Assembly: GCA_045660745.1 (NCBI GenBank)
Contig: JAZREJ010000041.1
Coordinates: 12,656 to 76,655, forward strand
Direction of reading: 5' to 3'
DNA length: 64,000 bases
Origin: Eubacteriales bacterium
Lineage (GTDB): Bacteria > Bacillota > Clostridia > Oscillospirales > SIG627
Under the pieces are notes generated by a model. That model saw nothing but the letters and a program-made list of their open reading frames with translations. It was not told where the DNA came from and did not search any database. Positions 33,534 through 49,154 of the stretch are shown here, in pieces; positions within the stretch are counted from its first letter, which is position 1; each line of letters starts with the position of its first letter. Made by a program: the position numbers and the translations under genes.

Positions 33534-34088
33534 TCACTCCCCCCCTAACTGTTCAAAAAGCTCTTTGCAAAGAGCGTGATATGCTTCGTATTGCGAAATA
33601 AGAGCGGAAGCAGTCTCATCTGAGTGCAGTTCTTTGTCGGGGACAGAGGTGTTGTCGGCTCTCGTCGACAAGGCAACAGTATAAGTGCTCGTGCCGTATG
33701 GAACAAAAACACTTGTTTCTTCTGCTCTGTAACCCTCGGGAAGGGTACTTTCGTCTATTGTAAAAGCAAAGAACTCACTCGGTCTTTCAAACGCGACAGA
33801 TCCGTTCTCAGTTTTTTTGTTGAACACCAATTCCTTTTGGTAACTCATTTGATGTTCAAGTGAGTGTATCGGAACGTATTTGTAAACGTTTATTTGAATA
33901 CCAGAAAGATCGACCTTTTCATCATCGCACGTGAGGACCAACGAGAAATCTCCGATTTCATCCGACAAAGTGATATCCGTGTCGGATACGGGTTTTTCGG
34001 TGCCCTCGGCGGGAGGGCTTTTTTTCGCACATCCCGCCATTAGCAAAAGCACAAGAGTGAGTAATAGACAGATATTATGTTTTTTCAT
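33534..34088 (-). CDS. hypothetical lipoprotein
   Basis: ORF track 33534..34148; start moved to ATG 34088 (MKKHNICLLLTLVLLLMAGC, lipobox MAGC). Confidence 0.6.
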   Translation of the reverse strand: MKKHNICLLLTLVLLLMAGCAKKSPPAEGTEKPVSDTDITLSDEIGDFSLVLTCDDEKVDLSGIQINVYKYVPIHSLEHQMSYQKELVFNKKTENGSVAFERPSEFFAFTIDESTLPEGYRAEETSVFVPYGTSTYTVALSTRADNTSVPDKELHSDETASALISQYEAYHALCKELFEQLGGE

Positions 34089-34155
34089 ATATAACCCCAT
34101 GTTCAAGAACTGATAATTACATACTGCAAAGTTTGATAGTTTTTTCATATATACG

Positions 34156-35198
34156 TTAGTTTAATGCTGCATTAATATCATATGATACATTACCAACAAT
34201 TCCCTCGTTAATGATAACTACTGTTATTTCTTTTGCCCCATTGCCTCCGAAACTAATCTCGTTAATTATATACTCGTTATTTTGAATAGTTGCTTCTGAA
34301 ATACTATAATTTCCGGTATAGGTTTTTTTGATAACCTTTACTCTAGTGTTAGAACCAGAGAAATTTACAGTTATTGTTATTGGTTGCACGCTACTTCCGG
34401 AAGGTTTAAACGTAATATAATTACTTGAAAGAGGGGATAACGATTCTTGTTGATTAGACGGGTAAGCAAAAGGATACGAAGTGCATTCTTGTGTTCTTTG
34501 TGCTTTTCCCCATGCATTGTTTCCTGTAGGTGCTATATCATAAAAATAATCTGCATCACTGTTAAATGTCATGAACCCGGAATATGCTTTTGCAAGATTG
34601 TAATTCGAGTTGTGGAGCGTTAATCCGGTATTAATCGCGGTCAAAGGATTGTTCGACGAGGTTGCGAATGATGCGAGAATTTTTTTAAGTTGAACAAAAT
34701 ACAGTGTCAATCTCATCAAAGACGTTGGCAACGGCTTCTGCAACCTCTATATTGACTGTAGTGCTTGCCTAATAATATACTCTGAATCTTCCCACTGTTT
34801 TACAATCATATGTTTGAGGCCATGTGTCATCATTTCGTCTTGACAATTCGTCTAATGTCCGTTGTATTGTGGACATATCGTAATCTTTGGAATCGCGATT
34901 ATTTTCATAAAATCTGCTTATCTCCCAATGTAATCCTGTGCCACATTCTTTTCTTATTATTTTTGTTTCGGCTTCTTCGCCTAAAATGGATTTACAAAGA
35001 GATAACACATAGTCATATTCTGAAATATCATCTTTATTTTTTGCAGTGTCAAATGTGTTTAATTCTGTTTGACAATCGTTGTTACAACATGCGGGGACTT
35101 TTTCTGTGCTTATTTCATTTGCATAAATTGGAAGTAACACTTGCAATAAAACCAAGGTGATAAGTAAAATGCTTATAATTTTTTTAATAGATTCTCAT
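34156..35198 (-). pseudogene. decayed gene for a secreted protein (two ORF fragments, 34769..35155 and 34156..34743)
   Basis: ATG 35198 is out of frame by 1 nt with the signal-peptide-like IKKIISILLITLVLLQVLLPIYA. In-frame TAG at 34771-34769. A plausible protein sequence (ASTTVNIEVAEAVANVFDEIDTV) continues past the TAG, then the frame shifts into the 34743 ORF. Confidence 0.55.
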
Positions 35199-35314
35199 TA
35201 TTAATAGAAAGGTTGAACGGCGTGTTAATTCAGTTAAGCCACATCGTATTCGCCTCCTTTTTGAGATTTGATATGCAATAAAATAAAGTGTAAATTGAAT
35301 AAAGCTCATTCTCT

Positions 35315-36562
35315 TTAACGAAGTGCACTTGTGCTTATGTAATAATAAACAAGTGACGAGGTCGTAACAGCATCTCCTCCAAGCTCTTTATTCGGAGTAT
35401 ATTCGGCGGCTCCAAAAATCAAATAATCATCTGTAACGTGACCGATATAATGCTTTCCGTCATTTATTGTATCGACATAAACAAGAATATCGTTCTTCAC
35501 ATCGTAATACATTGGGCAATCATTGTTCCATCCATCCCACACTATTAATGAATCATTACAATCAACAAGGTCTATTGTCAAAGAACTTTTAATTATCGGA
35601 TAAGATTTATTGTTTTTATACAGTATAAGCCCGTCATCAATTTTCGCAACCAGCGTGTTGTTATATCCGCTCAAATATAAATAGTTTTGTCCCAAAAATA
35701 TATCCGATTGCTCAGGCATTGTATTTTTTAAAACATACTCTTTTTTTGATTCATCATACCCCAGATATGAAACACCATTGTAATATATTGGCTCGGTAGC
35801 CCTTTTTTCGGCAACCAATGTAATTTCGTCCGCTTCTATATTATACTTATATAAATTAACGTTGGCTTTATTGTTGGTTACAGATACCGTGTCCTGAAAA
35901 TAAACTTCATTATCATTAATAACAATAGCACCAAAATTCCAGGAATACATATATCCGTTTTCGTCCTTTGTATAAGTGTAAAAGAGCTTGTTTACGCCTG
36001 TGTTCATGTCAAGACAGTTCAATGAAGCCTTAAGCCAATTGGCATTATCATCCTCCTTCCAAATAACATATCTGTCATTAACTACATAAATAGAGATTTC
36101 TTTATCTGTATTGAAGTGATATACGGTTTCCTCGGTGCAAGTGTCTAGGTTATATCTAAGAATGCTTTTATTCCCGTTTTGCTCTACTAAAAAATACAAA
36201 TAATTTTTATATTCTGCATGCAAAGCAAATGTATCATAAGATTCAATATTATTAAAAACCACCTTGTTTAGAGTTAAGCTCGGATAAACATTTGAAAACG
36301 CTTCGCATTTTTTATATAAATTTAATGTATACCTTTGAATATAATCTTTGCCTCCGACGTATTCCTTATATGCTATCTCTTTTTCTACAATTTCATAATG
36401 TTTGTTTTTATTAAAAACATCTGTGTCGATTTTCAAAACATTAGATATACCTTCTTCTTGTTCGTCTGCGATATCCGAAAAAGGCTCAGAGTTTCCTTTG
36501 CATGAAGAAAAAGTAAGAAAAAAACACAGCAATAGTACCGCAAATAATTTTTTATTAAACAT
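35315..36562 (-). CDS. hypothetical lipoprotein, beta-propeller-like (DUF5050/TolB-like pattern)
   Basis: 415 aa; lipobox FSSC. Repeated hydrophobic/aromatic beta-strand pattern (YNLDT..VYHF, YVIW, LYKYNIE, etc.). Confidence 0.6.
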   Translation of the reverse strand: MFNKKLFAVLLLCFFLTFSSCKGNSEPFSDIADEQEEGISNVLKIDTDVFNKNKHYEIVEKEIAYKEYVGGKDYIQRYTLNLYKKCEAFSNVYPSLTLNKVVFNNIESYDTFALHAEYKNYLYFLVEQNGNKSILRYNLDTCTEETVYHFNTDKEISIYVVNDRYVIWKEDDNANWLKASLNCLDMNTGVNKLFYTYTKDENGYMYSWNFGAIVINDNEVYFQDTVSVTNNKANVNLYKYNIEADEITLVAEKRATEPIYYNGVSYLGYDESKKEYVLKNTMPEQSDIFLGQNYLYLSGYNNTLVAKIDDGLILYKNNKSYPIIKSSLTIDLVDCNDSLIVWDGWNNDCPMYYDVKNDILVYVDTINDGKHYIGHVTDDYLIFGAAEYTPNKELGGDAVTTSSLVYYYISTSALR

Positions 36563-36594
36563 AATTTCTCCTTAAAATCTCATGACCTTTCTTA

Positions 36595-36870
36595 TCAAAA
36601 CAAATTTGTTATATTTGTTTTGATACTATACACTGTATTTTGCTCAAAGTTTTCTCCTACATATACTCTTGCAACTGTTTTGACTCGATATGTACCATTT
36701 GATAAACCCGATTTTGCATTGGTTAAAGAGCTTTTATATCGGATATTCAAATCTGAAAGGATCGAAGATGTATACATATATCTTGGAGTTACAGAGCCTG
36801 CTAACACAGTGATAAAAAAGCAACTTAACAAAAGCAATACCATAATTACCGACATCATCTTTTTAAGCAT
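36595..36870 (-). CDS. small secreted hypothetical protein
   Basis: ORF track 36595..36960; start moved to ATG 36870 behind AAAGGAGGGGG. Signal peptide MLKKMMSVIMVLLLLSCFFITVLAG. Confidence 0.5.
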   Translation of the reverse strand: MLKKMMSVIMVLLLLSCFFITVLAGSVTPRYMYTSSILSDLNIRYKSSLTNAKSGLSNGTYRVKTVARVYVGENFEQNTVYSIKTNITNLF

Positions 36871-36882
36871 AAGAATTCCCCC

Positions 36883-36928
36883 TCCTTTCTGCAAGTATTT
36901 TGAAATGACTTTTTGCCCTTTCATAAAC
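36883..36928 (-). promoter_or_regulatory. conserved intercistronic element, copy B
   Basis: Minus strand reads GTTTATGAAAGGGCAAAAAGTCATTTCAAAATACTTGCAGAAAGGA. Lies between the anti-sigma stop (36967) and ATG 36870. Confidence 0.6.
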
Positions 36929-36966
36929 ATATAACAAATCAGAGGGGGAAATTCTTTCACATTTTT

Positions 36967-37626
36967 TTACTTTTTTACAGATTCGGCAATTTTAACCAAA
37001 ACATCCTTGCCGATATTGGTAGATATATAAAAAACATATTCTCCGTTGTCCCACATTACGTGATGATAATCGTGATTATCTTTATAGTATATTCCGACAT
37101 TCCCGTTTATATTGATCTCTTCAATAACGGTATCCTCGGTATTAAGGCTAATATTAAAGCCCGATTTTGTATATTGATTAAAGCTTATCACGAGATTATC
37201 CTTGACATAATCAACGCATCTCGATATCGGAGTGACGCTCCACACATCCTCAATATATCCGTCAAGGTTATAAGTTATTTTGTAAAGCTCTTCAATGGAC
37301 TGCGAGGCGTTATTATCAAGTTGAACCAAAACCATTGAATTGGTATCAAAAATGCTTACAAAGAAGTTTGCAACGGCACTTCTCACGCTATCGAAAGCCA
37401 AAGCGGTTGCGGATAAGCAAAGCAACAGAATCAAAATAAAGCAAGCAACACGTTTTCTTGTAGAATTGATCAATTTATAATACGGTTTTTTACGCCTTTT
37501 TATCAATGCTCCCATTTTGTCTTCAAACTCTTTTGTGAAAATATGTTCGTCAGGCGAAATACTGTCGCATTCCTGAAGCATCGCATTTTGTAAAGCGATA
37601 ACAAAAACTTTATTGATCTTGTTCAC
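36967..37626 (-). CDS. anti-sigma factor-like membrane protein (DUF4367-type C-terminal domain)
   Basis: 219 aa. Overlaps the sigma gene by 17 nt. Cytoplasmic N-terminus, one TM (VACFILILLLCLSATALAF), C-terminal ...VMWDNGEYVFYISTNIGKDVLVKIAESVKK. Confidence 0.7.
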   Translation of the reverse strand: MNKINKVFVIALQNAMLQECDSISPDEHIFTKEFEDKMGALIKRRKKPYYKLINSTRKRVACFILILLLCLSATALAFDSVRSAVANFFVSIFDTNSMVLVQLDNNASQSIEELYKITYNLDGYIEDVWSVTPISRCVDYVKDNLVISFNQYTKSGFNISLNTEDTVIEEININGNVGIYYKDNHDYHHVMWDNGEYVFYISTNIGKDVLVKIAESVKK

Positions 37627-38149
37627 CTTCCTCCAAAAGATTTTTTAATTGTTTTTTTGCCCTACCTATGCGCACAGAAACTGTATTTTCCGTTATCGTG
37701 AGCATTTTTGCTATTTCTTTTGTTGAAAATCCAATTACGTAACGTAGATATAAAACATCTTTATAAATATCATCAAGCTGTAAGATACAATTTAAAAGCA
37801 CTTCATAATTATAGTTTTCGAAAAAATCTATCTCTATTGCGGTCGTATCATCGTTAAATTCTTTATGGTGGCTTGCATTTCTTTTGTTTTTGTTATAAAT
37901 GTTAATAGCTGCGTTCTTAGCTATAATAACAACGTATGGCTTTAATTCATGACAGGATAATTGAGAAATTTTTTCAAAACTATTTGCAATATTTAAAAAA
38001 GCTTGATGAACCGCATCTTCTGAATCGTGAACGTTTTTCAAAATATTAAAGCATACCGAATACATATATTGCTTGTAATTTATATACAACTCTTCAAAAC
38101 TTCTTTTTTGTTCTTCACGTTCCAATACAGAAAGATATAATTGCAACAT
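37610..38149 (-). CDS. ECF-type sigma-70 family RNA polymerase sigma factor
   Basis: 179 aa. Region 2 (DSEDAVHQAFLNI) and region 4 HTH (FSTKEIAKMLTITENTVSVRIGRAKKQLK). Confidence 0.9.
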   Translation of the reverse strand: MLQLYLSVLEREEQKRSFEELYINYKQYMYSVCFNILKNVHDSEDAVHQAFLNIANSFEKISQLSCHELKPYVVIIAKNAAINIYNKNKRNASHHKEFNDDTTAIEIDFFENYNYEVLLNCILQLDDIYKDVLYLRYVIGFSTKEIAKMLTITENTVSVRIGRAKKQLKNLLEEGEQDQ

Positions 38150-38288
38150 TTGTAACCCCTTTTAGCCCGAAAATCAAACTGAATTTTAATTGAATAAGCA
38201 ATTGCAAGTAACACAAAAATTCTCCTATAAAATCGCGAAGGTTTGCAGATATCACCTGCCTAATACGACTTTTTGTTACTTTATTACA

Positions 38289-38318
38289 ATTATAACACGG
38301 CATCAACATTAAAGTCAA
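38289..38318 (-). promoter_or_regulatory. sigma-A-type promoter upstream of the sigma/anti-sigma operon
   Basis: Minus strand TTGACT (38318-38313), 18-nt spacer, TATAAT (38294-38289), followed by a leader of about 130 nt. Confidence 0.55.
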
Positions 38319-38393
38319 GCAATGCATGTGTTATAAACTGTGTAAAGCGTAAATTTTGACAAGGTGTATGCAACAATTGAAAAGCAGGCAATA

Positions 38394-38452
38394 CAAAAAA
38401 TCAAGCGGGAGGCTCACCGGCTTACTAAACGTAAGTCAAGAGTCTCCCGCTT
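38394..38452 (-). terminator. terminator of the 43630-38491 carbohydrate operon
   Basis: Minus strand: AAGCGGGAG / CTCCCGCTT outer stem (38452-38444 / 38411-38403), inner stem CTTAC/GTAAG, then GATTTTTTG. Confidence 0.75.
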
Positions 38453-38490
38453 TGATATTAACAAAGTAGTGCGTGTCTTTTTTGAAGCAA

Positions 38491-39567
38491 TTAAAGCTTA
38501 ATAGGTTTACCTGTCCTTATACTTTCGTAGCAAGCATTCATAGCACAAATAGTATTGCGGTGCCATCCAAGATTAATCTTGGGGGTCTTGCCCTCACGGA
38601 TACAGGTTGCGAACTCATCAATGAGTCCTACCCACTCGTCAAAGTATGTGTACTGAACAACGTACTTGGAGTCGGGAGTAGAATTGTGATATACGTTGGG
38701 ACCGAAGCAATCGGTCATAACAGAGCCCTTGTCGGCATTGAGAATGATGTTAACCTCCATTCTCTTGGGGAAGATCTCCCATCCGGGACCGGGAACCTTA
38801 AGCTTAGCTTCGGTTCTTGACCAAGAGGGGTCGAGAAGGAATACAACGCCGTTTTTCATCTTACCTGTTACTGCAACCATATCCTCTTCCTCAATATCTA
38901 GACGGATGTTAGGTGCAACAGTTGCAAAGATGGTATCAAATTCACTGCCTGTCATCTCGCGGATGAGGTCAAAAATGTGGGGATGGTCACAGATAGCACC
39001 GCCTCTGAAACGGTGATCACCGTCCTTGAGGGGAACTCTCTTACCGTAGCTCTTCTCGGGAACGCCCTGCCAGGGGAACGCCCAAACGGGAGAAAGGGTG
39101 ATATTTGTCGCCTCAAAAGAACGGAGTGTTCCGAGAGCACCTGCGTTGTTAAGCTCCTTAAGTCTCATTACAACGGGCTTGTAGTGAAGCTCAAGCTCAA
39201 CCTGGAATACGATTCCCGCCTCACGGCATACTCTTTCCATTTCTGCATACTCCTCCATATCGAAGGTGGGTATCTTCATGGAGAGGATATGGATGCCGCG
39301 CTCTGCACACATCTTAACCTGACGGAGGTGATCGCTGTTCTCACTTGCAAGAACTACAGCCTCGATCTCGGGATGCTCGGCAAGCATCTGTTCCTCACTG
39401 TCATAGCAAGGAATACCCTGTACGGAATTGAGGAATATCTCCTTTACTTCAGCGTTAGCACAGGAAACTGCAACCCAATCAAGCTTGGGGTTGTCGCGAA
39501 GTGTCTGATAATACTTTCTTGTGTGTCCATGGGTCATGGACATCATAGCAATTTTAATAGGCTTCAT
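38491..39567 (-). CDS. Gfo/Idh/MocA family oxidoreductase
   Basis: 358 aa. N-terminal Rossmann-like segment KIAMMSMTHGHTRKY..EAVVLASEN and a C-terminal alpha/beta domain. Confidence 0.8.
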   Translation of the reverse strand: MKPIKIAMMSMTHGHTRKYYQTLRDNPKLDWVAVSCANAEVKEIFLNSVQGIPCYDSEEQMLAEHPEIEAVVLASENSDHLRQVKMCAERGIHILSMKIPTFDMEEYAEMERVCREAGIVFQVELELHYKPVVMRLKELNNAGALGTLRSFEATNITLSPVWAFPWQGVPEKSYGKRVPLKDGDHRFRGGAICDHPHIFDLIREMTGSEFDTIFATVAPNIRLDIEEEDMVAVTGKMKNGVVFLLDPSWSRTEAKLKVPGPGWEIFPKRMEVNIILNADKGSVMTDCFGPNVYHNSTPDSKYVVQYTYFDEWVGLIDEFATCIREGKTPKINLGWHRNTICAMNACYESIRTGKPIKL

Positions 39568-39581
39568 TATGTGTCCCTCCC

Positions 39582-40271
39582 TTATACTCTTATGTTATCA
39601 ACGGTCTCGATAGCAAGACGAGCAGCCTTAACAACTGCGTCGATGTGGTCAGCCGCAGCTTCTGTTTCGGTTCCGTTCTGTGCAATATCGAAGGTGTGAC
39701 GGATGATAGCGCACTCATCAATGTTGAGCCCGAAAAGCTCGGCATCAACGTCGGTGAAGGTAGTGTTTGTATCACCGAAAACGTAGATAGAGCTCTGGGG
39801 TACCTGAGTATCAACAACTCTGTCGCAAACGTTACCGGATACTGCGATCATCTCGTGCTTGTCAATGGGAGCCTGAGTATCGGGAAGAGTTGCGGAAAGC
39901 TCAAAGGAGCAAACGATTCCATTTTCGCTCTTTGCGATGGCGTTGAGTGCAACACCGCCATTTTCAACAGCAAAGATCTCAGCGATCTTTTCGCCCGAGA
40001 TATACTCAAATACATCCGCCTCACGCCAAAGAACATCGTAGAGGTTGGTGCCTCTCTTTGTAATGTGAGTGACTCTTACGGTGGAAAGACCTGTAAGTCT
40101 GCCCTGTACCACAAGATTTCTCATCTCGATAAATCTGCGCTCTGCACGCCATGGGAGAAGTCTAACCTTCTTACCTGCAACAAGCGCTTCCTTCTCACTT
40201 ACAAGCTCTGCCTTTGTGGCAACGTCGTACTTTGCAAGAAGAAACTCAAGCTTTTCCTGAAGTTTTTTCAT
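39582..40271 (-). CDS. Gfo/Idh/MocA C-terminal-domain-like protein lacking a Rossmann fold
   Basis: 229 aa. Segment RFIEMRNLVVQGRLTGLSTVRV...VFEYISGEKIAEIFAV..NGIVCSFELSAT resembles the oxidoreductase C-terminal domain. No N-terminal nucleotide-binding segment. Confidence 0.5.
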   Translation of the reverse strand: MKKLQEKLEFLLAKYDVATKAELVSEKEALVAGKKVRLLPWRAERRFIEMRNLVVQGRLTGLSTVRVTHITKRGTNLYDVLWREADVFEYISGEKIAEIFAVENGGVALNAIAKSENGIVCSFELSATLPDTQAPIDKHEMIAVSGNVCDRVVDTQVPQSSIYVFGDTNTTFTDVDAELFGLNIDECAIIRHTFDIAQNGTETEAAADHIDAVVKAARLAIETVDNIRV

Positions 40272-40291
40272 GGTTTTATTCCTTTCTTAAA

Positions 40292-41041
40292 TTAAAGCAT
40301 TTTTATGCGAGGCCTATACTTTGCAAGATAAGCCGCATTCTTTTCGTCACCGCCGGGAGTATTTGCGCTTGACCATACAGGAGGAGTGATTCCTCTCTCA
40401 ATACACTGACGCACACACTCAATCTCAAGAAGATGAGCAATGTAGAAATCAACTATGTTGGAGGTGGGCGCAATGGGAGTGTCAAGACCCGGTACGTTTA
40501 CAACAGCGTCACCTACGGGGTTGTAGTCGTCAATGCAAACGTCTGCATAATCGAAGAGATTCTTCTTGTTCGGATGGCGGATAAAGTGATCGGCGGGCAT
40601 CTCGTCCTGCCAGTAGGAGCTGGAGATAGCAATAATCTTAACGCCTCTCTTCTTTGCTTCCTCAGCGGCATCTATGGTTGCGGGGTTGATACCGATGTTG
40701 TGGAAGATGATAAGAAGGTCTCCTTCCTTAAGATCATAGTACTTGAGAATGGATGAGCCGTAGTTTACGGTACGCTCAAGCTCAAGATATTTGAGCGCCT
40801 GATTGAAAACAGAAAGACCTGTTTCCATACAAGGATTGATGCAGGCAAGACCGCCCGCTCTGAAGAACATCTCACCGAGGGGAAGGGTGGTATGTCCGCC
40901 ACCGCCGTATACACTGATAAGGCGATCGTTTTCTATAGCGTCAGCCATAAGGCTTGCCGCTTTTTTTATATTTTCTTCCTGCTTTTCGTTTATCTCTTCA
41001 AGGTTTGCAAGAATACTCTTAAAATAACCGAAATCATTCAT
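40292..41041 (-). CDS. SIS domain protein (UPF0309-like)
   Basis: 249 aa. Segment DRLISVYGGGGHTTLPLGEMFFRAGGL..IAISS; paralog of 41880..42599. Confidence 0.75.
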   Translation of the reverse strand: MNDFGYFKSILANLEEINEKQEENIKKAASLMADAIENDRLISVYGGGGHTTLPLGEMFFRAGGLACINPCMETGLSVFNQALKYLELERTVNYGSSILKYYDLKEGDLLIIFHNIGINPATIDAAEEAKKRGVKIIAISSSYWQDEMPADHFIRHPNKKNLFDYADVCIDDYNPVGDAVVNVPGLDTPIAPTSNIVDFYIAHLLEIECVRQCIERGITPPVWSSANTPGGDEKNAAYLAKYRPRIKML

Positions 41042-41870
41042 ACTGAAGTTTCCTTTCTATTTCTTTTCTTGTTGGGATAGCATCAATAACATGGGCTCTT
41101 GTAACGCTGATTCCGCTTGCGGCATTGGCAAAACGGCAAGACTCTTCAAGGCTCATATTCTCAGCCAAGCATACAGCAAGCACCCCGTTGAAGGTATCGC
41201 CTGCGCCGGTTGTGTCAACGGGACGATCAGAAGTTGCGGGGACAACAGTCGTACCGTTTATAAGGCAACCCTTTTTGCCGAGGGTCACTATAGTGTTTTC
41301 AAAAAGCTGTGGGTCCAAAAAGCGAGATTCTTGCTCATTGGGGGTTGCAAGGAACAGCTTTTCCGAAATCAGGGCTTTTCTTGCGGGAGCGGGATTGAGT
41401 ATTACGCGTACACCGTGCTTTTTCGCAATTTCCATTGCACACGCGTTCACTTCTTGCGGTACCTCGTTTTGCAAAAGCAGAATATCGCTCGACTCAATCT
41501 CCTTTTCAAAAGCACCTACATCCTCTTCCGTAAGCTCGGCTCCCCTGTAGACCGTCACACGGTTTTCACCGTTTTTGTCGGTCAGGATAAATGCCGTAGG
41601 ACTGGGGGTATTCTTTTTTATAAGGAACGGAGTGATACCGTTTTCGATACAGCACTCAAGACTTGCACGCCCGTCCGAGTCATCTCCGACAGCGGCAAGA
41701 AACGAGACCTGCGCCCCAAAGCGTGCGGCGGCGACAGCCTGATTCATGCCCTTGCCGCCAACCTCGTAAAAAAGCGAGTCGGCGGAAAGAGTCTCTCCGT
41801 TTTCGTGGAAATGGTCGACTGTCATGAAATACGAGCCGCCAACGATACCGATAACAGATATTTTAGCCAT
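41034..41870 (-). CDS. PfkB family carbohydrate kinase (ribokinase-like)
   Basis: 278 aa. Motifs GGKGMNQA and DTTGAGDTFNG. Confidence 0.9.
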   Translation of the reverse strand: MAKISVIGIVGGSYFMTVDHFHENGETLSADSLFYEVGGKGMNQAVAAARFGAQVSFLAAVGDDSDGRASLECCIENGITPFLIKKNTPSPTAFILTDKNGENRVTVYRGAELTEEDVGAFEKEIESSDILLLQNEVPQEVNACAMEIAKKHGVRVILNPAPARKALISEKLFLATPNEQESRFLDPQLFENTIVTLGKKGCLINGTTVVPATSDRPVDTTGAGDTFNGVLAVCLAENMSLEESCRFANAASGISVTRAHVIDAIPTRKEIERKLQYE

Positions 41871-41879
41871 GTCAACCTC

Positions 41880-42599
41880 TTAAAGATGCTTTATGCGTGG
41901 CATGTATTTTTTGATAAGTGCTTTGTTGTACTCAGCGCCTCCCTCAACGTTTCCGCTGAGGTATACGTCAGGCTTCACTGTTTTTGCGGCAAGGCGTGCG
42001 CCTTCCATCAAAACAGACTGCATAATATAGGATGAAGCAGCGGTGGAAACACTGCCCATCGGCACTTCAACGCCTTCAATATCAATGACTGCATCTCCGT
42101 GTGGCACGCAGTTGTCAATATAGATATCTGAGCACTCGTAAAGGAGTGGGGCGTCCTTTTTATCGGTAAAATAGTCGGAGGAGACTACTGATACGGTAAA
42201 GACACCGCTTGAACGCGAAACTTCTGCCATCTCGACGGGAGCGGCATTTTTGCCCGAGGTGGATATAACGAAAAGCATATCGCGCTCGGTTATGCAGTAG
42301 CGCTCAAAAACGCTGGGGGTTATCCCGCGCATCTTCTCCATTTTACTGCTTTTTGCCGCACCGTTGTGAAGCATGAGGTCGGTGTCGAGCACTGCACTTA
42401 CGTTTACAAGACCTCCTGCTCTGTAAAAGCAGTCGAGCCCGATAAGATGGGAATGTCCGCATCCGAAAACGTATATAATGCCGTCGTCTTCTATGACCTT
42501 CGCAACACGCTCTGCAACACTCTGCATCTTGTCATGCTGAGTGTTTTTTATTTTTGTGAGTACTTCTGTGATTTTTTCGTAATAAGTATCGAAAATCAT
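41880..42599 (-). CDS. SIS domain protein (UPF0309-like)
   Basis: 239 aa. Segment DGIIYVFGCGHSHLIGLDCFYRAGGL..FVISTSGKN. Confidence 0.75.
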   Translation of the reverse strand: MIFDTYYEKITEVLTKIKNTQHDKMQSVAERVAKVIEDDGIIYVFGCGHSHLIGLDCFYRAGGLVNVSAVLDTDLMLHNGAAKSSKMEKMRGITPSVFERYCITERDMLFVISTSGKNAAPVEMAEVSRSSGVFTVSVVSSDYFTDKKDAPLLYECSDIYIDNCVPHGDAVIDIEGVEVPMGSVSTAASSYIMQSVLMEGARLAAKTVKPDVYLSGNVEGGAEYNKALIKKYMPRIKHL

Positions 42600-43630
42600 T
42601 ATTTCTTAAGAACTCTTCTGTAGTTTTCACCAATCTTGTCCCAAAGAGCGAGGGGGTTCTCAGCTGCAACAACGGTGCCGAGACCTCCGCGGTAGGTCCA
42701 GGTAGCAAGACGGTCAACGCCCATAGATTCGTAAAGGTCAACAACGTGATCGACCTGAGAGAGATCTGCTGGGCTCTTGTTATAGCCCATGAGCCAACGC
42801 TCGGACTGCTTGCCGTACTTCTTTGCCATCTCAACTGTTCTCTTGGTGATGTCGATAAAGAAGCTTTCGGGGAGAGTCCAGTTGATGATGGTGGTGGAGA
42901 ATACGTCAAAATAGGGGCAGGAAGCAACCATATCCCAGTTATCGTAGCCGCGAAGCTCGGTAACGTAATAGGTGTTCAAGGTTGCGTGAACGCAACAGGT
43001 AATTTCAAGGTTGGGGTTGATCTCCTTGAGAGTCTTTGAGGTGTCGGAAAGGGTCTTGAGAGCCTCTCTCCAACGGAACTGCTTAACGTCATCATTCATG
43101 AACTTGGGCATTTCATAGCCGTAGTATTCCTCAAACTTCTTCATACATTCGGGGCAACGGCAAGCCCAGTCGTCACCTGCGCCGCCTGTGATGGATGCGT
43201 AGGACTTGGGATATGCGTAGTGGGGCTCATCCCAGAAGAATCCGTCAACCTCTGTCTCGCGAGCAAGCTTTACGCAAATTCTCGTGAAATAATCTCTGAA
43301 GGAATTGGTATTGAAGCAAGCGGCGTTGAGAACTTCACCTGTATAAGCGGAAACTTGTCTGTGGTGAATGTTGTTCTGAAGGAACAGGCTGACCTGTTCT
43401 CCACCGAAATACTTACCGATACCCCAGGTATCAGCGATAACGCGAAGTCCCATCTCGTGAGCCTTTTTAACGATGTTGTTGATATTGGGAAACCAGAAGT
43501 CCATGTCGAACTCTGTGATAGCGAGAATCACGGTATCACAGCCGTGCTCAAGCATCTCCTGAAAATCCTTTTCTGCATGCTCTACGTAGTTAAGTCCGTA
43601 GTAGCTGACAGCACAGTGCTTTATTGCCAT
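42599..43630 (-). CDS. cytoplasmic GH-like TIM-barrel protein of unknown specificity
   Basis: 343 aa with no signal peptide. Segment DGFFWDEPHY....WACRCPECMKKFEEYYG parallels the GH42 NE/CxCxxC region. Confidence 0.5.
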   Translation of the reverse strand: MAIKHCAVSYYGLNYVEHAEKDFQEMLEHGCDTVILAITEFDMDFWFPNINNIVKKAHEMGLRVIADTWGIGKYFGGEQVSLFLQNNIHHRQVSAYTGEVLNAACFNTNSFRDYFTRICVKLARETEVDGFFWDEPHYAYPKSYASITGGAGDDWACRCPECMKKFEEYYGYEMPKFMNDDVKQFRWREALKTLSDTSKTLKEINPNLEITCCVHATLNTYYVTELRGYDNWDMVASCPYFDVFSTTIINWTLPESFFIDITKRTVEMAKKYGKQSERWLMGYNKSPADLSQVDHVVDLYESMGVDRLATWTYRGGLGTVVAAENPLALWDKIGENYRRVLKK

Positions 43631-43730
43631 AGTTTTAAATCTCCTTTGATATTTATTTTATTTTAGTATAAAATGAAAGGACGATATTGTAAACTCACAT
43701 AAAATAACTTAAAGGTGGACATTTAGTAAC

Positions 43731-43759
43731 TTGACAAGGGAAGATTTATGTGGTATTTT
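43731..43759 (+). promoter_or_regulatory. sigma-A promoter of the first AraC gene
   Basis: TTGACA 43731-43736, 17 nt, TATTTT 43754-43759. Confidence 0.5.
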
Positions 43760-43776
43760 ATGTGTGAGGTGATATT

Positions 43777-44535
43777 ATGTTTCCAAACAAAAAAACTCAA
43801 TATTATCGTTTAATTTCAGCCTTAGAGCTTGAATGGGAGCCTCGGTGCGAGCACGCACCCGAGCGTAATTTTCATGCTATTTCCTTTCGCATAAAAGGAA
43901 ACGCAGTTTTTGAGCATGGGAGCGAAAGTACCTCGGTAGGTGCGGGAGAAGTTGCATTTGTGCCCGCAGGATATTCCTACACACTTGACGAAAAGAGCAG
44001 AGCACATCTTTTCGTTATACATTTTGATACTGTTCCCGACAAGATATCGGGTCTTGAATCAATAAAAGTGGCAAATCCTCTTTGGTACGAGGAGCACTTC
44101 AGAATGCTACATCGTATATGGCAGAGAAAGGAAACGGGCTACCGCCTTGCGGCGACCTCGGTCTTTTACAGGATACTTGAGGAGCTGGAACGAGAGGGAG
44201 AGGAAAAAAAGCCTTGTACTAAAGATAGATTGTCGCGTGTTGTCGAGTATATACACGCAAACTATACTGACCCCACGCTTTCAATAACCAGACTTGCGGA
44301 AATGTACGGAGCAAGTTCCACGTATTTCAGAAGGATATTTAAGGAAAGTATGTCGTCTCTTCCGCTGCAGTACCTCAATAAGCTCAGGCTCAAGCGCGCA
44401 GAGGAGCTCTTGCGCTCGGGATATTATACAGTGGCGCAGGCGGCGGCTGAATCGGGATTTTCGGACGTTAAATACTTCTCAAGGTTTGTAAAAAAGATAA
44501 ACGGAGATGCCCCGTCGAGGCTGTGGAAGGTATAA
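43777..44535 (+). CDS. AraC family transcriptional regulator
   Basis: 252 aa. Cupin-like N-terminus and a C-terminal double HTH (..TLSITRLAEMYGASSTYFRRIFK..VAQAAAESGFSDVKYFSRFVKK). Confidence 0.85.
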   Translation: MFPNKKTQYYRLISALELEWEPRCEHAPERNFHAISFRIKGNAVFEHGSESTSVGAGEVAFVPAGYSYTLDEKSRAHLFVIHFDTVPDKISGLESIKVANPLWYEEHFRMLHRIWQRKETGYRLAATSVFYRILEELEREGEEKKPCTKDRLSRVVEYIHANYTDPTLSITRLAEMYGASSTYFRRIFKESMSSLPLQYLNKLRLKRAEELLRSGYYTVAQAAAESGFSDVKYFSRFVKKINGDAPSRLWKV

Positions 44536-45363
44536 TTATTTTGTATAATCATGCGGAGTCTTGCCTGTGACCTTGTAAAATGCTTTGTAAAAATTGGAGG
44601 ATGAGGAAAATCCGCACCGCTGTGCTATCTCCAGCTTGGACAGAGCCTCGGTTTTTAAAAGCGAGATTGCACGCTCGACCCTCTTTATTGTTATATATTC
44701 CGTTACGGTTATACCGTTGTATTTTTTGAAAAGCGAAGAAAAATAAGGCTCAGACAGAAAGGAAAGCTCGGCAAGTGCTTTAAGCGAAATCTTATCCTGA
44801 AGATTCTCGTTAATGTAACGAAGAGCCTTCTTGATAGCTGATATCTGAGACGTTTCAACACTTAGCTCCGCATTTTTGTCAATATAATCATACTCGCGAA
44901 CTATATAAACGAGTGCATGAAGCAGAAAAAATCTTGAGTTTATCTCATAGCAAGGAACCTTGTCACAAAGCTCCTTTTCAACACCGAGAATGAGTTCCGA
45001 AAGCTTTTTGTCTCTACCTATCCTGTTTTCAAAGCCATCACTGCGCGCGAAGAAAAGCTTCAAAAGCTCGGAGCTTTCCCAAAGAAGTCGCGGTTCAAAG
45101 TGAATGTTAAGTATTTCGGTGTCGCGTATTATTTCGGTGATGCAGTGTACCTCGTGGCTCCCGAAAAGAAATATATCGCCTTCACGGTATTGGTAAGTAT
45201 GTTCTCCTACCTTGTATATCCCTTCACCTTGTACGAAAAGAGATAGCTCACATTCTGTATGGTGGTGCTCTCGGTATTCCCTTTTTTCGGGGGATACGCA
45301 GGAGCGAAAGCTTTTAATAATGGGACCTGAGTTTTTGAGAATCGAGTATTCGCACTTTTTCAT
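44536..45363 (-). CDS. AraC family transcriptional regulator
   Basis: 275 aa. Cupin-like N-terminus (HHHTECELSLFVQGEG) and a C-terminal AraC HTH (IAQRCGFSSSSNFYKAFYKVTGKTPHDY). Confidence 0.85.
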   Translation of the reverse strand: MKKCEYSILKNSGPIIKSFRSCVSPEKREYREHHHTECELSLFVQGEGIYKVGEHTYQYREGDIFLFGSHEVHCITEIIRDTEILNIHFEPRLLWESSELLKLFFARSDGFENRIGRDKKLSELILGVEKELCDKVPCYEINSRFFLLHALVYIVREYDYIDKNAELSVETSQISAIKKALRYINENLQDKISLKALAELSFLSEPYFSSLFKKYNGITVTEYITIKRVERAISLLKTEALSKLEIAQRCGFSSSSNFYKAFYKVTGKTPHDYTK

Positions 45364-45482: not shown

Positions 45483-46850
45483 ATGGGACAGATAAAAGAA
45501 AGAATCAGCGAAAACACAAATATATGCTCCTCTCCGTCAGAGCTTAAAATAACGGATATAAGAGTGGCGAATCTCAACGGTGCTCCCAAGCACTGTCCAC
45601 TCATCAAAATATACACAAATCAGGGAATCGTTGGCTACGGAGAGCTTCGTGATGCGTCCAGTGCCACATATGCATTGATGCTCAAATCAAGGCTTATCGG
45701 AGAAAATCCCTGTAACGTGGATAAGCTTTTTCGCCGTATCAAGCAGTTCGGAGGTCCTTCCCGTCAGGGTGGCGGTGTATCGGGAATCGAAATTGCACTC
45801 TGGGACCTTGCGGGCAAGGCATGGGGTGTTCCTCTCTGGCAGATGCTGGGAGGTAAATTCCGCGATAAGGTGAGAGTTTACTGCGATACCGACGTTGAAG
45901 GCAAGCATACAGGTCGCGATATGGGACTTGCACTAAAAAAACGTATGGAGCAGGGCTTCACATTTCTTAAAATGGACCTCGGTATTGAAATGCTTCTTGA
46001 CGAACCCGGTACCCTCAACGCCCCCGGCGGCTTCCTTGAGGATATCAAGAAATATTCCATGAAGGCAATAAATCATCAGGCGGGCTCTATTGACCGTTCA
46101 CTCATGCTTGGCAAAAACTACGAGGTTTTTACCATTCCCCATTACGCAACGGGAATTCACGTTACCGAAAAGGGACTTGATATACTTGAGGATTATGTAA
46201 GACAGGTACGAGAAGTTATAGGCTACGAAATTCCTCTGGCGATAGATCATCTCGGACACATAGCAATAGAGGACTGTATAAGATTTTTACGCCGCCTTGA
46301 AAGGTATAACATTGCGTGGGTAGAGGATCTCACCCCATGGCACCTCACGAATCACTGGGAAAGAATGGCAAGCTCTGTTGCAGTACCCCTCTGCACCGGA
46401 GAGGACATATACCTCGCCGAAAATTTTGAGCCTCTTCTTGCATGTCACGGCGTTTCGGTGGTACAGCCCGACCTTTTGACCATTGGCGGAGCACTCGAAA
46501 CGAAAAAGCTTGGCGATATGTGTGAAAAGTACGGCGTGGCAATGGCACTTCACATGGCTGAAAGTCCCATTGCTTGTATGGCTGCGATCCATACTGCGGC
46601 AGCTCTTCAGAACGTTCTTGCCGTAGAATATCACTCGATAGACATTCCTTGGTGGAATGATCTTGCTCTCGGCATCGACAATCCTCTTTTCAAAGACGGA
46701 TTCGTTGACGTTCCGAACAAACCCGGGCTTGGAATCGACTCACTCAATGAGGAACTTATCGCAGAGCACATACACCCCGACTACCCCGGTCAGTGGGAGC
46801 CTACCGATAACTGGAACAACGAGTGGGCAAACGACAGAGAATGGAGTTAA
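45483..46850 (+). CDS. enolase-superfamily (mandelate racemase/muconate lactonizing enzyme) acid-sugar dehydratase-like protein
   Basis: 455 aa. Segment GVSGIEIALWDLAGKAWGVPLWQMLGG; metal-ligand contexts AIDHLGH, WVEDL, TGEDIY. Confidence 0.8.
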   Translation: MGQIKERISENTNICSSPSELKITDIRVANLNGAPKHCPLIKIYTNQGIVGYGELRDASSATYALMLKSRLIGENPCNVDKLFRRIKQFGGPSRQGGGVSGIEIALWDLAGKAWGVPLWQMLGGKFRDKVRVYCDTDVEGKHTGRDMGLALKKRMEQGFTFLKMDLGIEMLLDEPGTLNAPGGFLEDIKKYSMKAINHQAGSIDRSLMLGKNYEVFTIPHYATGIHVTEKGLDILEDYVRQVREVIGYEIPLAIDHLGHIAIEDCIRFLRRLERYNIAWVEDLTPWHLTNHWERMASSVAVPLCTGEDIYLAENFEPLLACHGVSVVQPDLLTIGGALETKKLGDMCEKYGVAMALHMAESPIACMAAIHTAAALQNVLAVEYHSIDIPWWNDLALGIDNPLFKDGFVDVPNKPGLGIDSLNEELIAEHIHPDYPGQWEPTDNWNNEWANDREWS

Positions 46851-46852
46851 TT

Positions 46853-47530
46853 ATGAAAATACGTTGGATAGGACAGGGAGGATATCTTCTGAGCGACAAC
46901 GACACTACGATTTGTATAGATCCATATATTTCGGATGCTGTCGAAAGGATCTCGGGCAAAAAGAGACTTGTAAAAGCACCGTTTCACCCGAGCGAGCTCA
47001 AAGCAAATGCCGTAATATGCACTCACGACCATCTTGATCACGTTGATACGGATGCCATACCTTTCATGAATGAGCTTTGCTTTTTCGCTCCCTCAAGCGC
47101 TGAAAAAACGATACGTTCGTGCGGTGTTACAGCTTATACTCAGTTTGACGTAGGGACAAGTGTAATGGTGGGAGAGTTTGAACTCACGGCGGTGTTTGCA
47201 GATCATACCGTTCCCGCAATAGGTGTTATCGTAAGACACAAGGACAGTACTCTTTTCTTTACGGGAGATACCTTCTACAATGAAAAGCTTATACATCAAG
47301 GTATTGATATTCTCTTTGTTTGCATCAACGGAAAGCTTGGTAATATGAACGTTTACGAGGCTATAAAGCTGGTAGGGGAAATCAACCCGAAGGTGGCGGT
47401 ACCCGCACACTACGGAATGTTTGCGGAAAACACAGAGGACCCCAAGAAATTTACGTCGGCTATTGAAAATGGTTTTGAAATGGAATATAATAAAGAATAC
47501 GAATGTGAGGAGTTGTTATGTTCGATTTGA
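46853..47530 (+). CDS. MBL-fold hydrolase (UlaG/lactonase-like)
   Basis: ORF track 46823..47530; start moved to ATG 46853 (MKIRWIGQGG). Motif THDHLDHVD. Confidence 0.75.
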   Translation: MKIRWIGQGGYLLSDNDTTICIDPYISDAVERISGKKRLVKAPFHPSELKANAVICTHDHLDHVDTDAIPFMNELCFFAPSSAEKTIRSCGVTAYTQFDVGTSVMVGEFELTAVFADHTVPAIGVIVRHKDSTLFFTGDTFYNEKLIHQGIDILFVCINGKLGNMNVYEAIKLVGEINPKVAVPAHYGMFAENTEDPKKFTSAIENGFEMEYNKEYECEELLCSI

Positions 47531-48249
47531 CAGGAAAAACGGCACTTGTAACCGGTGCGACTCAGGGAATCGGATTTGAAATCGCAAGGCTTCTTGCGTC
47601 ACATGGCGCAAAAGTGTTTGTGGCGGGCTCAAGAGACATTGAAAAATGCAAAAAGGCCTGTCTTGAAATTTCCGAAGCGCTCCCCGTTGTGGCAGACCTC
47701 ACCAGCCCCGACTGTGCCGAAAAATTATACGATATGACCGGAGACGTTGATATACTTGTACTCAACGCATCCATTCAGTACAAGCGTGAGTGGGACTGCT
47801 TTTCGGATGAGGAGTATGATGCGCAATGGAATTGCAACTTTAAAAGCTCCTACCTTCTCATAAAGAAGTACAGTGAGGGAATGAAGGAAAAGGGATTCGG
47901 AAGAATTGTGACTGTCGGAAGTGTAAATCAATACAGTCAACACAAGGAGCTTTCTATGTACGGAGTGACGAAGGCTGCACAGATGAAGCTTGTGCAAAAT
48001 CTTGCGCCACTACTCGCACCACACGGAATCACAGTAAACAATATTGCTCCCGGAGTTGTGGAAACTCCAAGAAACGACGACGTGCTCTCAGACGAGTGCT
48101 TAAAAGAAAAGATACAGGAGAAGATTCCCTGCGGGTTCATTGCGACTCCGAGGGATATCGCACCCGCAGTTTTACTTCTCGTTTCAAATGAAGGAAGATA
48201 TATCACAGGAAGCGACCTGATAATTGACGGAGGTATGCATCTAAAATGA
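47518..48249 (+). CDS. SDR family oxidoreductase
   Basis: 243 aa. Motifs TGATQGIG and YGVTKAA (YxxxK). Confidence 0.9.
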   Translation: MFDLTGKTALVTGATQGIGFEIARLLASHGAKVFVAGSRDIEKCKKACLEISEALPVVADLTSPDCAEKLYDMTGDVDILVLNASIQYKREWDCFSDEEYDAQWNCNFKSSYLLIKKYSEGMKEKGFGRIVTVGSVNQYSQHKELSMYGVTKAAQMKLVQNLAPLLAPHGITVNNIAPGVVETPRNDDVLSDECLKEKIQEKIPCGFIATPRDIAPAVLLLVSNEGRYITGSDLIIDGGMHLK

Positions 48250-49154
48250 ATTTTAACAATCGTGACGAAATAATCGCACTCACCCCCGAGTGGACAGGAG
48301 AAAGACTCCCCGACGGACGTCCCAAAGTGGATGAAAAATACTTAAAGGCACTGAAAAATCTCACTCTTGAGGAGGTTTGGAAGCCTATATTCGTAAAGGG
48401 GTATGAAAGCCAGTTTGAGGGCAGACTTCAGACCCTTCACAACGACGGACGCAAGCTTATAGGCAGAGCTGTGACCGCAACCTACTGTCCGTTCCGTCCC
48501 GACCTTAACGAGGTTGTTAAAGAGACAGGCAAGAGTGAGGGTAGAACGGGTACCTACAATCAATGGGTGATTGACTCACTCGGAGAATACGACGTGCCTG
48601 TTATTGATATGTACGACAAGATATACAAGGGCACTTTTCTCGGCGGAAACCTCACCACCGCTCTCAAGAATAAGACGAAGAATGAAAACGGTGGAGCTGT
48701 TATCTGGGGCGGTATCCGTGACACAGAGCAGATGCTCAAGGTTGAAAATACACAGGTATACTACCGAGGCATCGACCCCACTCCCATCCGTGACTTTATA
48801 ATGACAGGCTTTAATACCGTGACGAGAATCGGAAACGCCGTGTGCCTGCCGGGTGACGTTGTATTCGGTGCGGGAGGAGGCGTACTCTTTATTCCGAGTC
48901 ACCTTGTAGAAGATGTTGTGGGGGGCGCGGCAAAGACTCAGGTGAAGGATATGTTCGGCTTTGAGATGATAGCGCAAAACAAGTTCACCACAGCACAAAT
49001 TGACCGTAACACCTGGACTCGCGAAATGCTTGATTTACTTCTCGAATTTATCGAAAAGGATGACAGAGCGGCAGAGTACCGCGAGCTTGACTGGTCACAC
49101 GAATACTATCTTGCCGACAACGGAGATCCGACGGATACACAATCTGCACTCTAA
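48246..49154 (+). CDS. RraA/HMG-aldolase-like family protein
   Basis: 302 aa. Segment GGNLTTALKNKTKNENGGAVIWGGIRDTEQ and ...LPGDVVFGAGGGVLFIP match the RraA/4-hydroxy-4-methyl-2-oxoglutarate aldolase fold pattern. Confidence 0.7.
   Translation: MNFNNRDEIIALTPEWTGERLPDGRPKVDEKYLKALKNLTLEEVWKPIFVKGYESQFEGRLQTLHNDGRKLIGRAVTATYCPFRPDLNEVVKETGKSEGRTGTYNQWVIDSLGEYDVPVIDMYDKIYKGTFLGGNLTTALKNKTKNENGGAVIWGGIRDTEQMLKVENTQVYYRGIDPTPIRDFIMTGFNTVTRIGNAVCLPGDVVFGAGGGVLFIPSHLVEDVVGGAAKTQVKDMFGFEMIAQNKFTTAQIDRNTWTREMLDLLLEFIEKDDRAAEYRELDWSHEYYLADNGDPTDTQSAL

Follow-up and report, generated by a model that had tools for sequence, protein, structure and literature searches.

In a 64,000-nucleotide stretch of DNA from a Eubacteriales bacterium of the Clostridia (GenBank assembly GCA_045660745.1, contig JAZREJ010000041.1; hereafter, the window), we analysed six minus-strand genes, labelled g1–g6 in order of transcription, with all positions numbered from the whole window. 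These genes form a real operon that is conserved in modular form, and many uncultured Clostridia of gut and rumen, as well as Bacteroidota of gut, soil and sea, carry the full cassette or its core. They encode a barrel resembling glycoside hydrolase (GH) family 42 (g1), two UPF0309-type SIS proteins (g2 and g4), a PfkB kinase (g3) and two proteins of the Gfo/Idh/MocA type (g5 and g6). Gene anatomy, folds, residue patterns, co-occurrence and gene context, all observed directly, led us to the tentative proposal, which we place a little short of probable, that this is an AraC-controlled operon for the cytoplasmic breakdown of an amino-sugar (N-acetylhexosamine, HexNAc-type) glycoside with a phosphorylative and a non-phosphorylative branch. 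The general assignment to an amino-sugar glycoside is more secure than any single step. A sugar-catabolic operon is a known kind of system; the enzyme set and branch structure found here are undescribed, two of the six proteins belong to families absent from Pfam and none has an experimentally characterized close relative.

An initial annotation, made from the sequence alone, had described six tightly packed genes on the minus strand, and the coordinates and open reading frames agree with this description. Successive junctions from g1 to g6 measure -1, 9, -8, 20 and 14 nt, negative values denoting overlap, and an AAGGAG ribosome-binding site lies ahead of g1. The annotated terminator was borne out by folding: its hairpin at about 38400-38456, with the U-run behind it, has an energy of -28.5 kcal/mol (z = -4.84), and none of 200 shuffled sequences folded as well. 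A simple terminator scan had missed this hairpin because its stem is interrupted. The AraC-family regulator said to face the operon is indeed divergent from g1. From the common strand, the junctions, the promoter-like site, the terminator and the kept gene order, we infer that the six genes are co-transcribed as a single unit. In line with the initial annotation, no transporter gene was found in or adjoining the unit.

Searching 1.84 billion representative proteins at E ≤ 0.001 returned 498 matches to the g1 family, many of them fragments, and a scan of one genome per species identified at least 589 species genomes with a g1 relative. The best 80 species genomes are without exception Clostridia from gut or rumen; they span several families, include the cultured Fumia xinanensis and have g1 proteins that are 86–90% identical. 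Comparison of gene neighbourhoods, a check suggested in the initial annotation, revealed the same gene set around g1 homologues in these 80 genomes and in three Bacteroidota genomes, so the cluster is not a product of chance; the set is modular. Identity between the Clostridia and Bacteroidota proteins is uneven (g1 62%, g4 71%, g6 64% and g5 34%), which points to gene-specific constraint rather than recent transfer of the whole block. Recent wholesale horizontal transfer is also an unlikely source of the high g1 identity among Clostridia, given that g5 (38–58%) and g3 (49–63%) are far more diverged in the same loci. In several loci, the genes past the cassette are unrelated housekeeping genes, such as uvrAB and those of arginine biosynthesis.

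Co-occurrence was counted in 36 Clostridia loci in which the contig covers 3.5 kb upstream and 7 kb downstream of g1. An AraC gene lies upstream of g1 in 34 of these, and all 36 contain at least one UPF0309 SIS gene, g1 always having such a gene beside it. A g2-type SIS gene is accompanied by a kinase gene in 21 loci and occurs without one in none; three loci combine a kinase with a SIS gene whose type is not resolved by its residue pattern. The g4-type SIS gene is present in 28 loci, 12 of them without a kinase, and no locus lacks both the g4-type gene and the kinase. Where g5 and g6 are found (24 loci), they are together and always adjacent, and neither was recovered alone. A GH20-like gene, absent from this window, is present in 25 loci, and the full six-gene set in 10 or 11, 4 of which, like the window, have no GH20-like gene.

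The Bacteroidota version (Parabacteroides faecis, L004; Dyadobacter, L092; Membranicola, L093) consists of a core of g1, a g4-type SIS gene, g5 and g6; neither a kinase nor a g2-type SIS gene was found in the loci of these three genomes. The cores lie within SusC/SusD loci under ECF sigma/anti-sigma control, together with an MFS or SSF transporter. They are flanked by two mutually paralogous proteins of ~310–370 residues that are remotely GH20-like, some of which have Tat-type signals, suggesting that the paralogues with and without a signal are a periplasmic and a cytoplasmic copy of the same activity.

The two SIS proteins, which share 31% identity, are the short UPF0309-like proteins that the initial annotation had taken them to be, with scores well above the NF002805 (PRK02947) cut-off of 135 bits (250.4 for g2 and 233.2 for g4). 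Against SIS_2 (PF13580) they scored 134 and 129 bits, respectively, and in g4 PF01380 was matched only below threshold (22.3 versus 25 bits). Their only solved relatives are 3cvj and 9eol, the latter being ‘UPF0309 protein SCO4393’ (NagS), to which both align over the full length with ~30% identity (E = 1e-27 to 1e-31). UPF0309 had been described at the outset as functionally undefined. This no longer holds for the family, as SCO4393 of Streptomyces was shown in 2025 to be a dehydratase of N-acetylglucosamine 6-phosphate (GlcNAc-6P)(PMC12680351). It does hold for the present clade, in which the homologues from Clostridium amylolyticum and Paenibacillus selenitireducens were negative or negligible for GlcNAc-6P dehydration (PMC12680351). 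The substrate here would therefore be something other than GlcNAc-6P, or GlcNAc-6P is at least not established as the substrate. NagS-type orthologues are recognized by an identity to SCO4393 of at least about 58.7%, a divergent dmdR1 neighbour and a Streptomycetaceae host (PMC12680351), whereas g2 and g4 combine ~30% identity with an AraC neighbour and hosts among the Clostridia and Bacteroidota; we therefore rejected them as NagS orthologues. Full-text literature searches yielded no paper on this cassette, and the NagS study was the only functional work found on UPF0309. A 2026 preprint on mycobacterial N-acetylmuramic acid (MurNAc) was set aside as unrelated.

We placed the NagS residues on g2 and g4 using HMMER alignments to 9eol and extended the comparison to all orthologues (57 g2-class and 53 g4-class sequences). 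The essential residues of NagS are H53, R64, E94 and D179; two more, S91 and N228, are important, and S54, S119 and S121 hold the phosphate (PMC12680351). All 9 of these ligand-contacting or catalytic residues are kept in 57 of 57 g2-class sequences. The g4 class likewise keeps H53, R64, E94, D179 and N228 in all 53 sequences, but the phosphate-binding serines are replaced: position 54 is Thr, 119 His and 121 Ile throughout, and position 91 is Leu in 52 sequences and Ile in 1. Conservation of g4 is high, at 78–87% in all but two Clostridia sequences. Taken together with the co-occurrence rules, the anion-site residues suggest that g2 works on the phosphate ester made by g3, and g4 on a sugar that carries no phosphate. 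Both proteins thus resemble NagS in family (PRK02947) and full-length alignment, and g2 additionally in S91 and the phosphate serines; they differ in that the gene is duplicated, is tied to a kinase (g2) or has no phosphate site (g4), and lies inside a catabolic cassette. The clean residue difference between g2 and g4 offers a directly testable hypothesis on phosphate-dependent and phosphate-independent branches.

The kinase assignment of g3 also stood (PF00294, 174.9 bits, above the cut-off), and the stretches GGKG.NQ and DTTGAGD, which we take to be the PfkB signature motifs, are kept across 55 orthologues. Against the ribokinase equivalog TIGR02152, g3 scored 236.8 bits (cut-off 299.65), and it matched a Thermotoga ribokinase at 1e-40. 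The Asn and Asp of the ribokinase GSxNxD motif bind ribose; the aligned residues in g3 are Gly and Ser. With a score below the cut-off and these sugar-binding residues changed, g3 was rejected as a true ribokinase.

No Pfam or NCBIfam model matched g1, GH42 PF02449 and GH20 included. Despite this, the initial call of a GH-like TIM barrel was supported by its AlphaFold2 model (pLDDT 89.7, pTM 0.90), a (beta/alpha)8 barrel for which the best PDB matches in Foldseek were GH14 beta-amylase, the Clostridioides difficile wall hydrolase Cwp19, GH42 (E ~1e-10), GH35 and GH164. When PDB sequences were searched with the g1 profile, a GH42 enzyme came out best (E = 0.015), aligned over the N-terminal 160 residues that include the Cys cluster. 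Only 6 of 58 g1-family members gave weak matches, and single members weakly matched the GHL6, MupG_N, GH42, GHL10, DUF4838 and GH123 models.

In clan GH-A, the acid/base residue sits at the end of strand 4 and the nucleophile at strand 7, and GH42 enzymes are marked by an NEP acid/base motif on strand 4, a nucleophile Glu on strand 7 and a Cys zinc site. Aligning g1 with the pair of GH42 proteins encoded in the window by hhalign (E = 7e-5, 288 columns) placed C105 on a GH42 Cys, FWDEPH on AWNEPR, C157 and C159 on the cysteines of CCC, and M281/G282 on the Glu of CHEF. We take this Glu to be the GH42 nucleophile, which would make M281/G282 the corresponding position in g1. At the acid/base position Glu is retained, preceded by Asp134 where GH42 has Asn (DEP for NEP). 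In the g1 model, D134–E135 closes strand 4 and residues 275–281 form strand 7. Across 58 diverse relatives, C105, C157 and C162 are kept in all 58, C159 in 57, and D134, E135 and P136 in 56; the four cysteines are probably a zinc site. The likeness to GH42 therefore comprises the TIM-barrel fold and the positions of the Cys cluster and the acid/base Glu, whereas g1 is a single domain of 343 residues without the GH42 trimerisation domain.

A catalytic Asp–Glu pair is known from GH123 hexosaminidases. In GH20, adjacent Asp and Glu residues act as the polarising residue and the general acid/base (PMC11659886). An Asp–Glu pair without a nucleophile is the arrangement of hexosaminidases that use the acetamido group of their substrate, and by this analogy g1 would be a glycosidase acting on a 2-acetamido sugar. 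No sequence homology links g1 to GH20. Hexosaminidases of the GH20 type also have a pocket of Tyr and Trp for the acetamido group; the candidate Tyr has been lost in the g1 subfamily of the window. Two GH20-like subfamilies go with the cassette in related loci. In one (for example, L080:6613-7965 and L031:12095-13465), a conserved Asp-Lys stands where the other has H-x-G-x-D-E, the motif that contains the catalytic Asp-Glu pair of GH20; judged by this, the Asp-Lys subfamily may not be a conventional hexosaminidase.

We next consider the genes surrounding g1 and its more distant relatives. Rarer recurrent neighbours of the cassette are NAGLU, GH113, three kinds of N-acetyltransferase, a DUF4434-like protein, an esterase-like hydrolase, GH94 and a beta-lactamase-family protein. 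In Ruthenibacterium, the set is bordered at one end by genes for sugar ABC permeases, an acetyltransferase, a MurQ-like SIS protein, a BadFG kinase, GH20, NAGLU and LacI, and at the opposite end by those for a GlcNAc 2-epimerase, an FAD oxidoreductase and DUF4434. One g1 relative with 39% identity (L086:5201-6199) is embedded in the series BadFG kinase, MurQ-like, g1 relative, NamZ, NagA-like, AnmK and M20 peptidase, which makes it a candidate cytoplasmic muropeptide glycosidase, so far undescribed; a 24%-identical relative adjoins a BadFG kinase and AnmK. Two relatives on Omnitrophica-type contigs adjoin a sugar ABC transporter, a ROK kinase, GH94 and a phosphohexomutase, and the archaeal contexts of distant relatives were uninformative. 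Taken as a whole, the g1 family is thus linked with the salvage of HexNAc and MurNAc, which fits the proposed glycosidase role of g1 without proving it for the subfamily in the window.

The remaining two proteins are g5 and g6. As annotated, g6 is a full-length Gfo/Idh/MocA protein, with the N-terminal PF01408 domain at 36.3 bits (cut-off 24) and the C-terminal family domain at 39.6 bits (cut-off 27). Lys98 (SMKIP) and DHPHIFD, which we read as the catalytic Lys (EKP) and Asp/His motifs of the family, are kept in 39 orthologues. The same orthologues keep the stretch SMTHGHTRKY, which presumably sits where the GxGxxG dinucleotide loop of the family would be expected. For g5, no Pfam or NCBIfam match and no Rossmann domain were found, and the earlier description of a Rossmann-less Gfo/Idh/MocA-like protein is in accord with its AlphaFold2 model (pLDDT 90.8), which has the fold of the family's C-terminal domain. 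Foldseek aligned nearly the whole length of this model with inositol dehydrogenases and other Gfo/Idh/MocA enzymes (E = 2e-11, TM ~0.6), and also matched it to NAD-dependent glycoside hydrolases. A profile of 50 g5 orthologues gave nothing significant against PDB sequences; its second-best match was the Gfo/Idh/MocA protein 3ezy (E = 0.95), in an alignment that by our reckoning starts about where the C-terminal domain of the family begins.

The pair had been described as split-looking, and this part of the initial annotation was not upheld. A split gene was rejected on the grounds that g6 is full length, that g5 bears no significant similarity to it (BLAST E = 0.07) and that the two are separate genes across phyla, always co-occurring. 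Together they probably form a heteromer. It is unusual for a degenerate Gfo/Idh/MocA protein to be obligately paired with one that consists only of the C-terminal domain, and we know of no described case in which an obligate partner is made only of a divergent C-terminal domain of this family.

These observations can be assembled into a route whose individual reactions, their sequence and the sugar itself are all proposed rather than observed. A transporter encoded elsewhere would import the glycoside, and g1 would cleave it in the cytoplasm, in other loci often aided by a GH20-like partner. The released sugar would enter the g3–g2 branch, the g4–g5/g6 branch, or both. In the phosphorylative branch, g3 would make the sugar phosphate that serves as the substrate of g2. 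In the non-phosphorylative branch, g4 would take an unphosphorylated or otherwise 6-substituted sugar, and the g5–g6 pair would finish its product. SIS enzymes of the NagS/MurQ kind act at C2–C3 of the open-chain sugar, where they remove or add water or an ether substituent. NagS and MurQ have been described as related (PMC12680351), and by analogy with both, g2 and g4 would probably do the same.

Several observations weigh against an amino-sugar route of this kind. The g1 subfamily of the window has lost two near-invariant residues of the family (the Tyr of TDPYW, replaced by I or N, and Q281, replaced by M), and the most distant g1 subgroup has WENPH or WDNPH in place of WDEPH, which leaves a substrate-assisted hexosaminidase mechanism for g1 insecure. 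Its very high conservation is also unusual for a glycosidase. Some neighbours, namely GH113, GH42 and a rhamnogalacturonan-lyase-like gene, are not specific to amino sugars, and the only Firmicute UPF0309 homologues assayed failed to dehydrate GlcNAc-6P. The usual dinucleotide-binding glycine loop appears to be missing from g6, and the weak, non-significant alignment of g5 with 3ezy puts the D...H positions on E/R83, leaving no dyad; as far as these residues can be read, g5–g6 may not be a conventional dehydrogenase. Finally, the cassette contains no nagA, nagB or aldolase gene, which leaves the link to central metabolism unaccounted for.

We weighed four other explanations. One, which we consider possible but unlikely, is an oxidative route through a keto intermediate, in which g5–g6 would break the bond by transient oxidation of a glycoside or anhydro-sugar that makes elimination possible, g1 would be a hydratase- or lyase-type barrel and the SIS proteins would isomerise the product. 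The PDB and NCBIfam neighbours of g6 include RgNanOx (6Z3B/6Z3C, E ~1e-6), DgpA, levoglucosan dehydrogenase and disaccharide 3-dehydrogenase models, and the cassette resembles these keto-intermediate systems, as well as the NAD-dependent glycosidases, in the two family domains of g6, its Lys98 and DHPH as we read them, the C-terminal-domain fold of g5 and the sugar-catabolic setting. Moreover, g1 has no nucleophile and is conserved like a small-molecule enzyme, and one Bacteroidota locus additionally carries a xylose-isomerase-like TIM barrel, the usual partner in keto-intermediate pathways. However, 12 of the 36 loci lack g5 and g6 although g1 and a SIS gene are present, which rules the pair out as a bond-breaking step common to all loci. 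The similarities of g6 are also weak and at the family level (26–31 bits versus cut-offs of 350–650), and its nucleotide loop is atypical, with SMTHGH in place of GxGxxG. Salvage of a cell-wall (peptidoglycan-type) sugar in parallel to MurK/MurQ, acting on a 3-O-substituted or modified muramic-type sugar, appears quite unlikely; here, g1 would be a cytoplasmic muropeptide glycosidase, g3 and g2 a kinase and an etherase analogue, and g4 a phosphate-free etherase. The N-acetylmuramic acid route of MurK and MurQ pairs a kinase with a SIS etherase, and the cassette shares with it the logic of a kinase and a SIS enzyme on a 2-acetamido sugar phosphate and a glycosidase gene beside the SIS gene. The reported kinship of NagS and MurQ, the distant g1 relative lying directly beside a MurQ-like gene and between it and NamZ, with NagA and AnmK, and the other relative next to BadFG kinase and AnmK genes all speak for such a parallel, as do the match of the g1 model to Cwp19, the N-acetyltransferases, esterase-like hydrolases and beta-lactamase-family protein that recur in the loci, and a spread over gut, soil and sea that would suit a universal substrate. 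Yet the link to MurQ, NamZ and AnmK is confined to g1 relatives of 24–40% identity, from which the window subfamily differs at conserved positions, and NAGLU, GH113, GH42 and the ECF-controlled SusC/SusD loci point instead to host or dietary glycans. No stem-peptide amidase or peptidase is conserved in the cassette. In contrast to MurQ, g2 and g4 did not match MurQ/GKRP-type models, the kinase is of the PfkB rather than the BadFG or ROK type, and the cassette adds both a second, putatively phosphate-independent SIS paralogue and an oxidoreductase pair.

The exact replacement in g4 of the phosphate-contacting serines (S119H, S121I and S54T), with the catalytic residues kept, could also be explained if g4 bound a sulfate or sulfonate. 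The cassette would then degrade a 6-sulfated or sulfonated sugar, such as sulfoquinovose or the GlcNAc-6-sulfate of mucin or glycosaminoglycans, with g5/g6 contributing to a non-hydrolytic removal of the sulfur group. The occurrence of g4 without a kinase in 12 of 36 loci, the co-occurrence of NAGLU and a weak match of g3 to sulfofructose kinase are consistent with this, and known 6-sulfo-GlcNAc-ases belong to GH20 (PMC11659886). We nevertheless regard a sulfo-sugar route as improbable, given that no sulfatase, sulfite or sulfonate exporter or sulfolactaldehyde enzyme was found in any locus examined and that the Leu and Ile replacements in g4 equally suit a neutral or deoxy position. The published sulfate-binding motifs are absent from the GH20-like partners, although sulfo specificity in GH20 cannot be predicted from sequence (PMC11659886). 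Finally, the pairing of a SIS protein with a PfkB kinase, strictly coupled in the case of g2 and g3, recalls FrlB/FrlD, and the initial annotation had compared the operon with Amadori or Heyns compound (FrlB/FrlD-like) and AgaS-type galactosamine catabolism. This is now very hard to sustain. FrlB and AgaS proteins have ~330–390 residues and two GlmS-type SIS domains, whereas g2 and g4 each have a single SIS_2 domain and fall in the PRK02947/NagS clade; no FrlB- or AgaS-named model appeared among their NCBIfam matches at E ≤ 0.01. With NF007321, the model for fructoselysine 6-kinase, g3 scored 28.3 bits (cut-off 247) and was rejected as FrlD. Amadori-type loci are usually accompanied by amino-acid transporters or asparaginases; the recurring neighbours here are glycosidases and N-acetyltransferases, a context of glycosides rather than amino-acid conjugates. 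The family analogies drawn in the initial annotation therefore failed on model scores. Its judgement that no known pathway accounts for the operon stands, and of the two substrate types it had named, amino sugars are favoured over Amadori compounds by the HexNAc gene context.

Within the amino-sugar reading, a more far-reaching joint claim would be that the cassette is an undescribed route for an abundant modified amino sugar. In this claim, g1 would found a new GH family derived from GH42, with Asn-Glu plus nucleophile changed to Asp-Glu; g4 would be the first NagS/MurQ-type SIS enzyme to act on a non-phosphorylated sugar, possibly 6-sulfated or 3-O-substituted; and g5–g6 would be a new heteromeric kind of Gfo/Idh/MocA enzyme, composed of a degenerate Rossmann subunit and a C-terminal-domain-only subunit, that carries out a redox-assisted, non-hydrolytic step. 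That all of this holds together is doubtful. If the cassette were solved, several large families now listed as ‘hypothetical’ would gain a function, a GH family would probably be added and NagS chemistry would extend beyond Streptomyces; it could also become clear how gut anaerobes use a common amino-sugar glycan of the host, the diet or microbial cell walls.

The positions of the cassette genes, their signals and selected neighbours are listed in Table 1.

Table 1. The six-gene cassette, its predicted signals and neighbouring features in the window
Feature	Position	Strand	Description
g1	42599-43630	-	343 aa, GH42-like (beta/alpha)8 barrel, cytoplasmic; anchor gene of the cassette
g2	41880-42599	-	239 aa, UPF0309/PRK02947 SIS protein, phosphate type
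g3	41034-41870	-	278 aa, PfkB kinase, ribokinase clade
g4	40292-41041	-	249 aa, UPF0309/PRK02947 SIS paralogue
g5	39582-40271	-	229 aa, Rossmann-less, fold of the Gfo/Idh/MocA C-terminal domain
g6	38491-39567	-	358 aa, full-length Gfo/Idh/MocA protein
Promoter-like site of the six-gene unit	43665-43693	-	TTTACA-17-TATACT, ~35 nt 5' of the g1 start codon; consensus match only
Intrinsic terminator	38389-38456	-	Long interrupted GC-rich hairpin followed by a U-run, 3' of g6
Promoter-like site of the next unit	38318-38289		Strong, near consensus, directly past the terminator; for a sigma-factor gene
AraC-family regulator gene	43777-44535	+	252 aa, divergent to g1
Promoter-like site of the AraC-family regulator gene	43731-43759		
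Second AraC gene	44536-45363	-	Faces a different operon
Gene for 689-aa protein	49736-51805	+	No Pfam family; in the neighbouring operon

The spacer between the AraC-family regulator gene and g1 is 146 bp long and holds promoter-like sites in both directions. Within it (43696-43764), the 8-mer TTTATGTG occurs three times, as two direct copies 12 nt apart and one inverted copy. This repeat could be a candidate operator half-site, but it is short and lies in an AT-rich region.

The second AraC gene faces another operon and is therefore not the regulator of the cassette. That neighbouring operon (45483-56060, plus strand) is a separate unit with this AraC gene as its own, and encodes an enolase-superfamily (galactonate-dehydratase-like) protein, a metallo-beta-lactamase-fold protein, an SDR, an RraA-like aldolase, a nitroreductase, the 689-residue protein and two GH42 paralogues that are 63% identical to each other; it looks like a galactoside and sugar-acid pathway. 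The 689-residue protein had no sequence match in the PDB. In four related loci (L016, L074, L077 and L081), a member of its family with 50% identity is placed straight after g6, and it is possibly tied functionally to the cassette.

On the other side, just past the terminator, the region 34000-38300 has a G+C content of 32–34%, compared with ~45% elsewhere in the window. It holds a sigma-70-family gene, a gene for a DUF4367 protein and several open reading frames without a family match, and could be an acquired island. Further along, at 25448-31213, genes for a PHP-domain protein, a xylose-isomerase-like TIM barrel and an amidohydrolase-2 protein lie in a row, followed by one for a BlaR1-type M56 peptidase with a sub-threshold C-terminal match to an IseA-like endopeptidase inhibitor (28.0 versus 29.9 bits).

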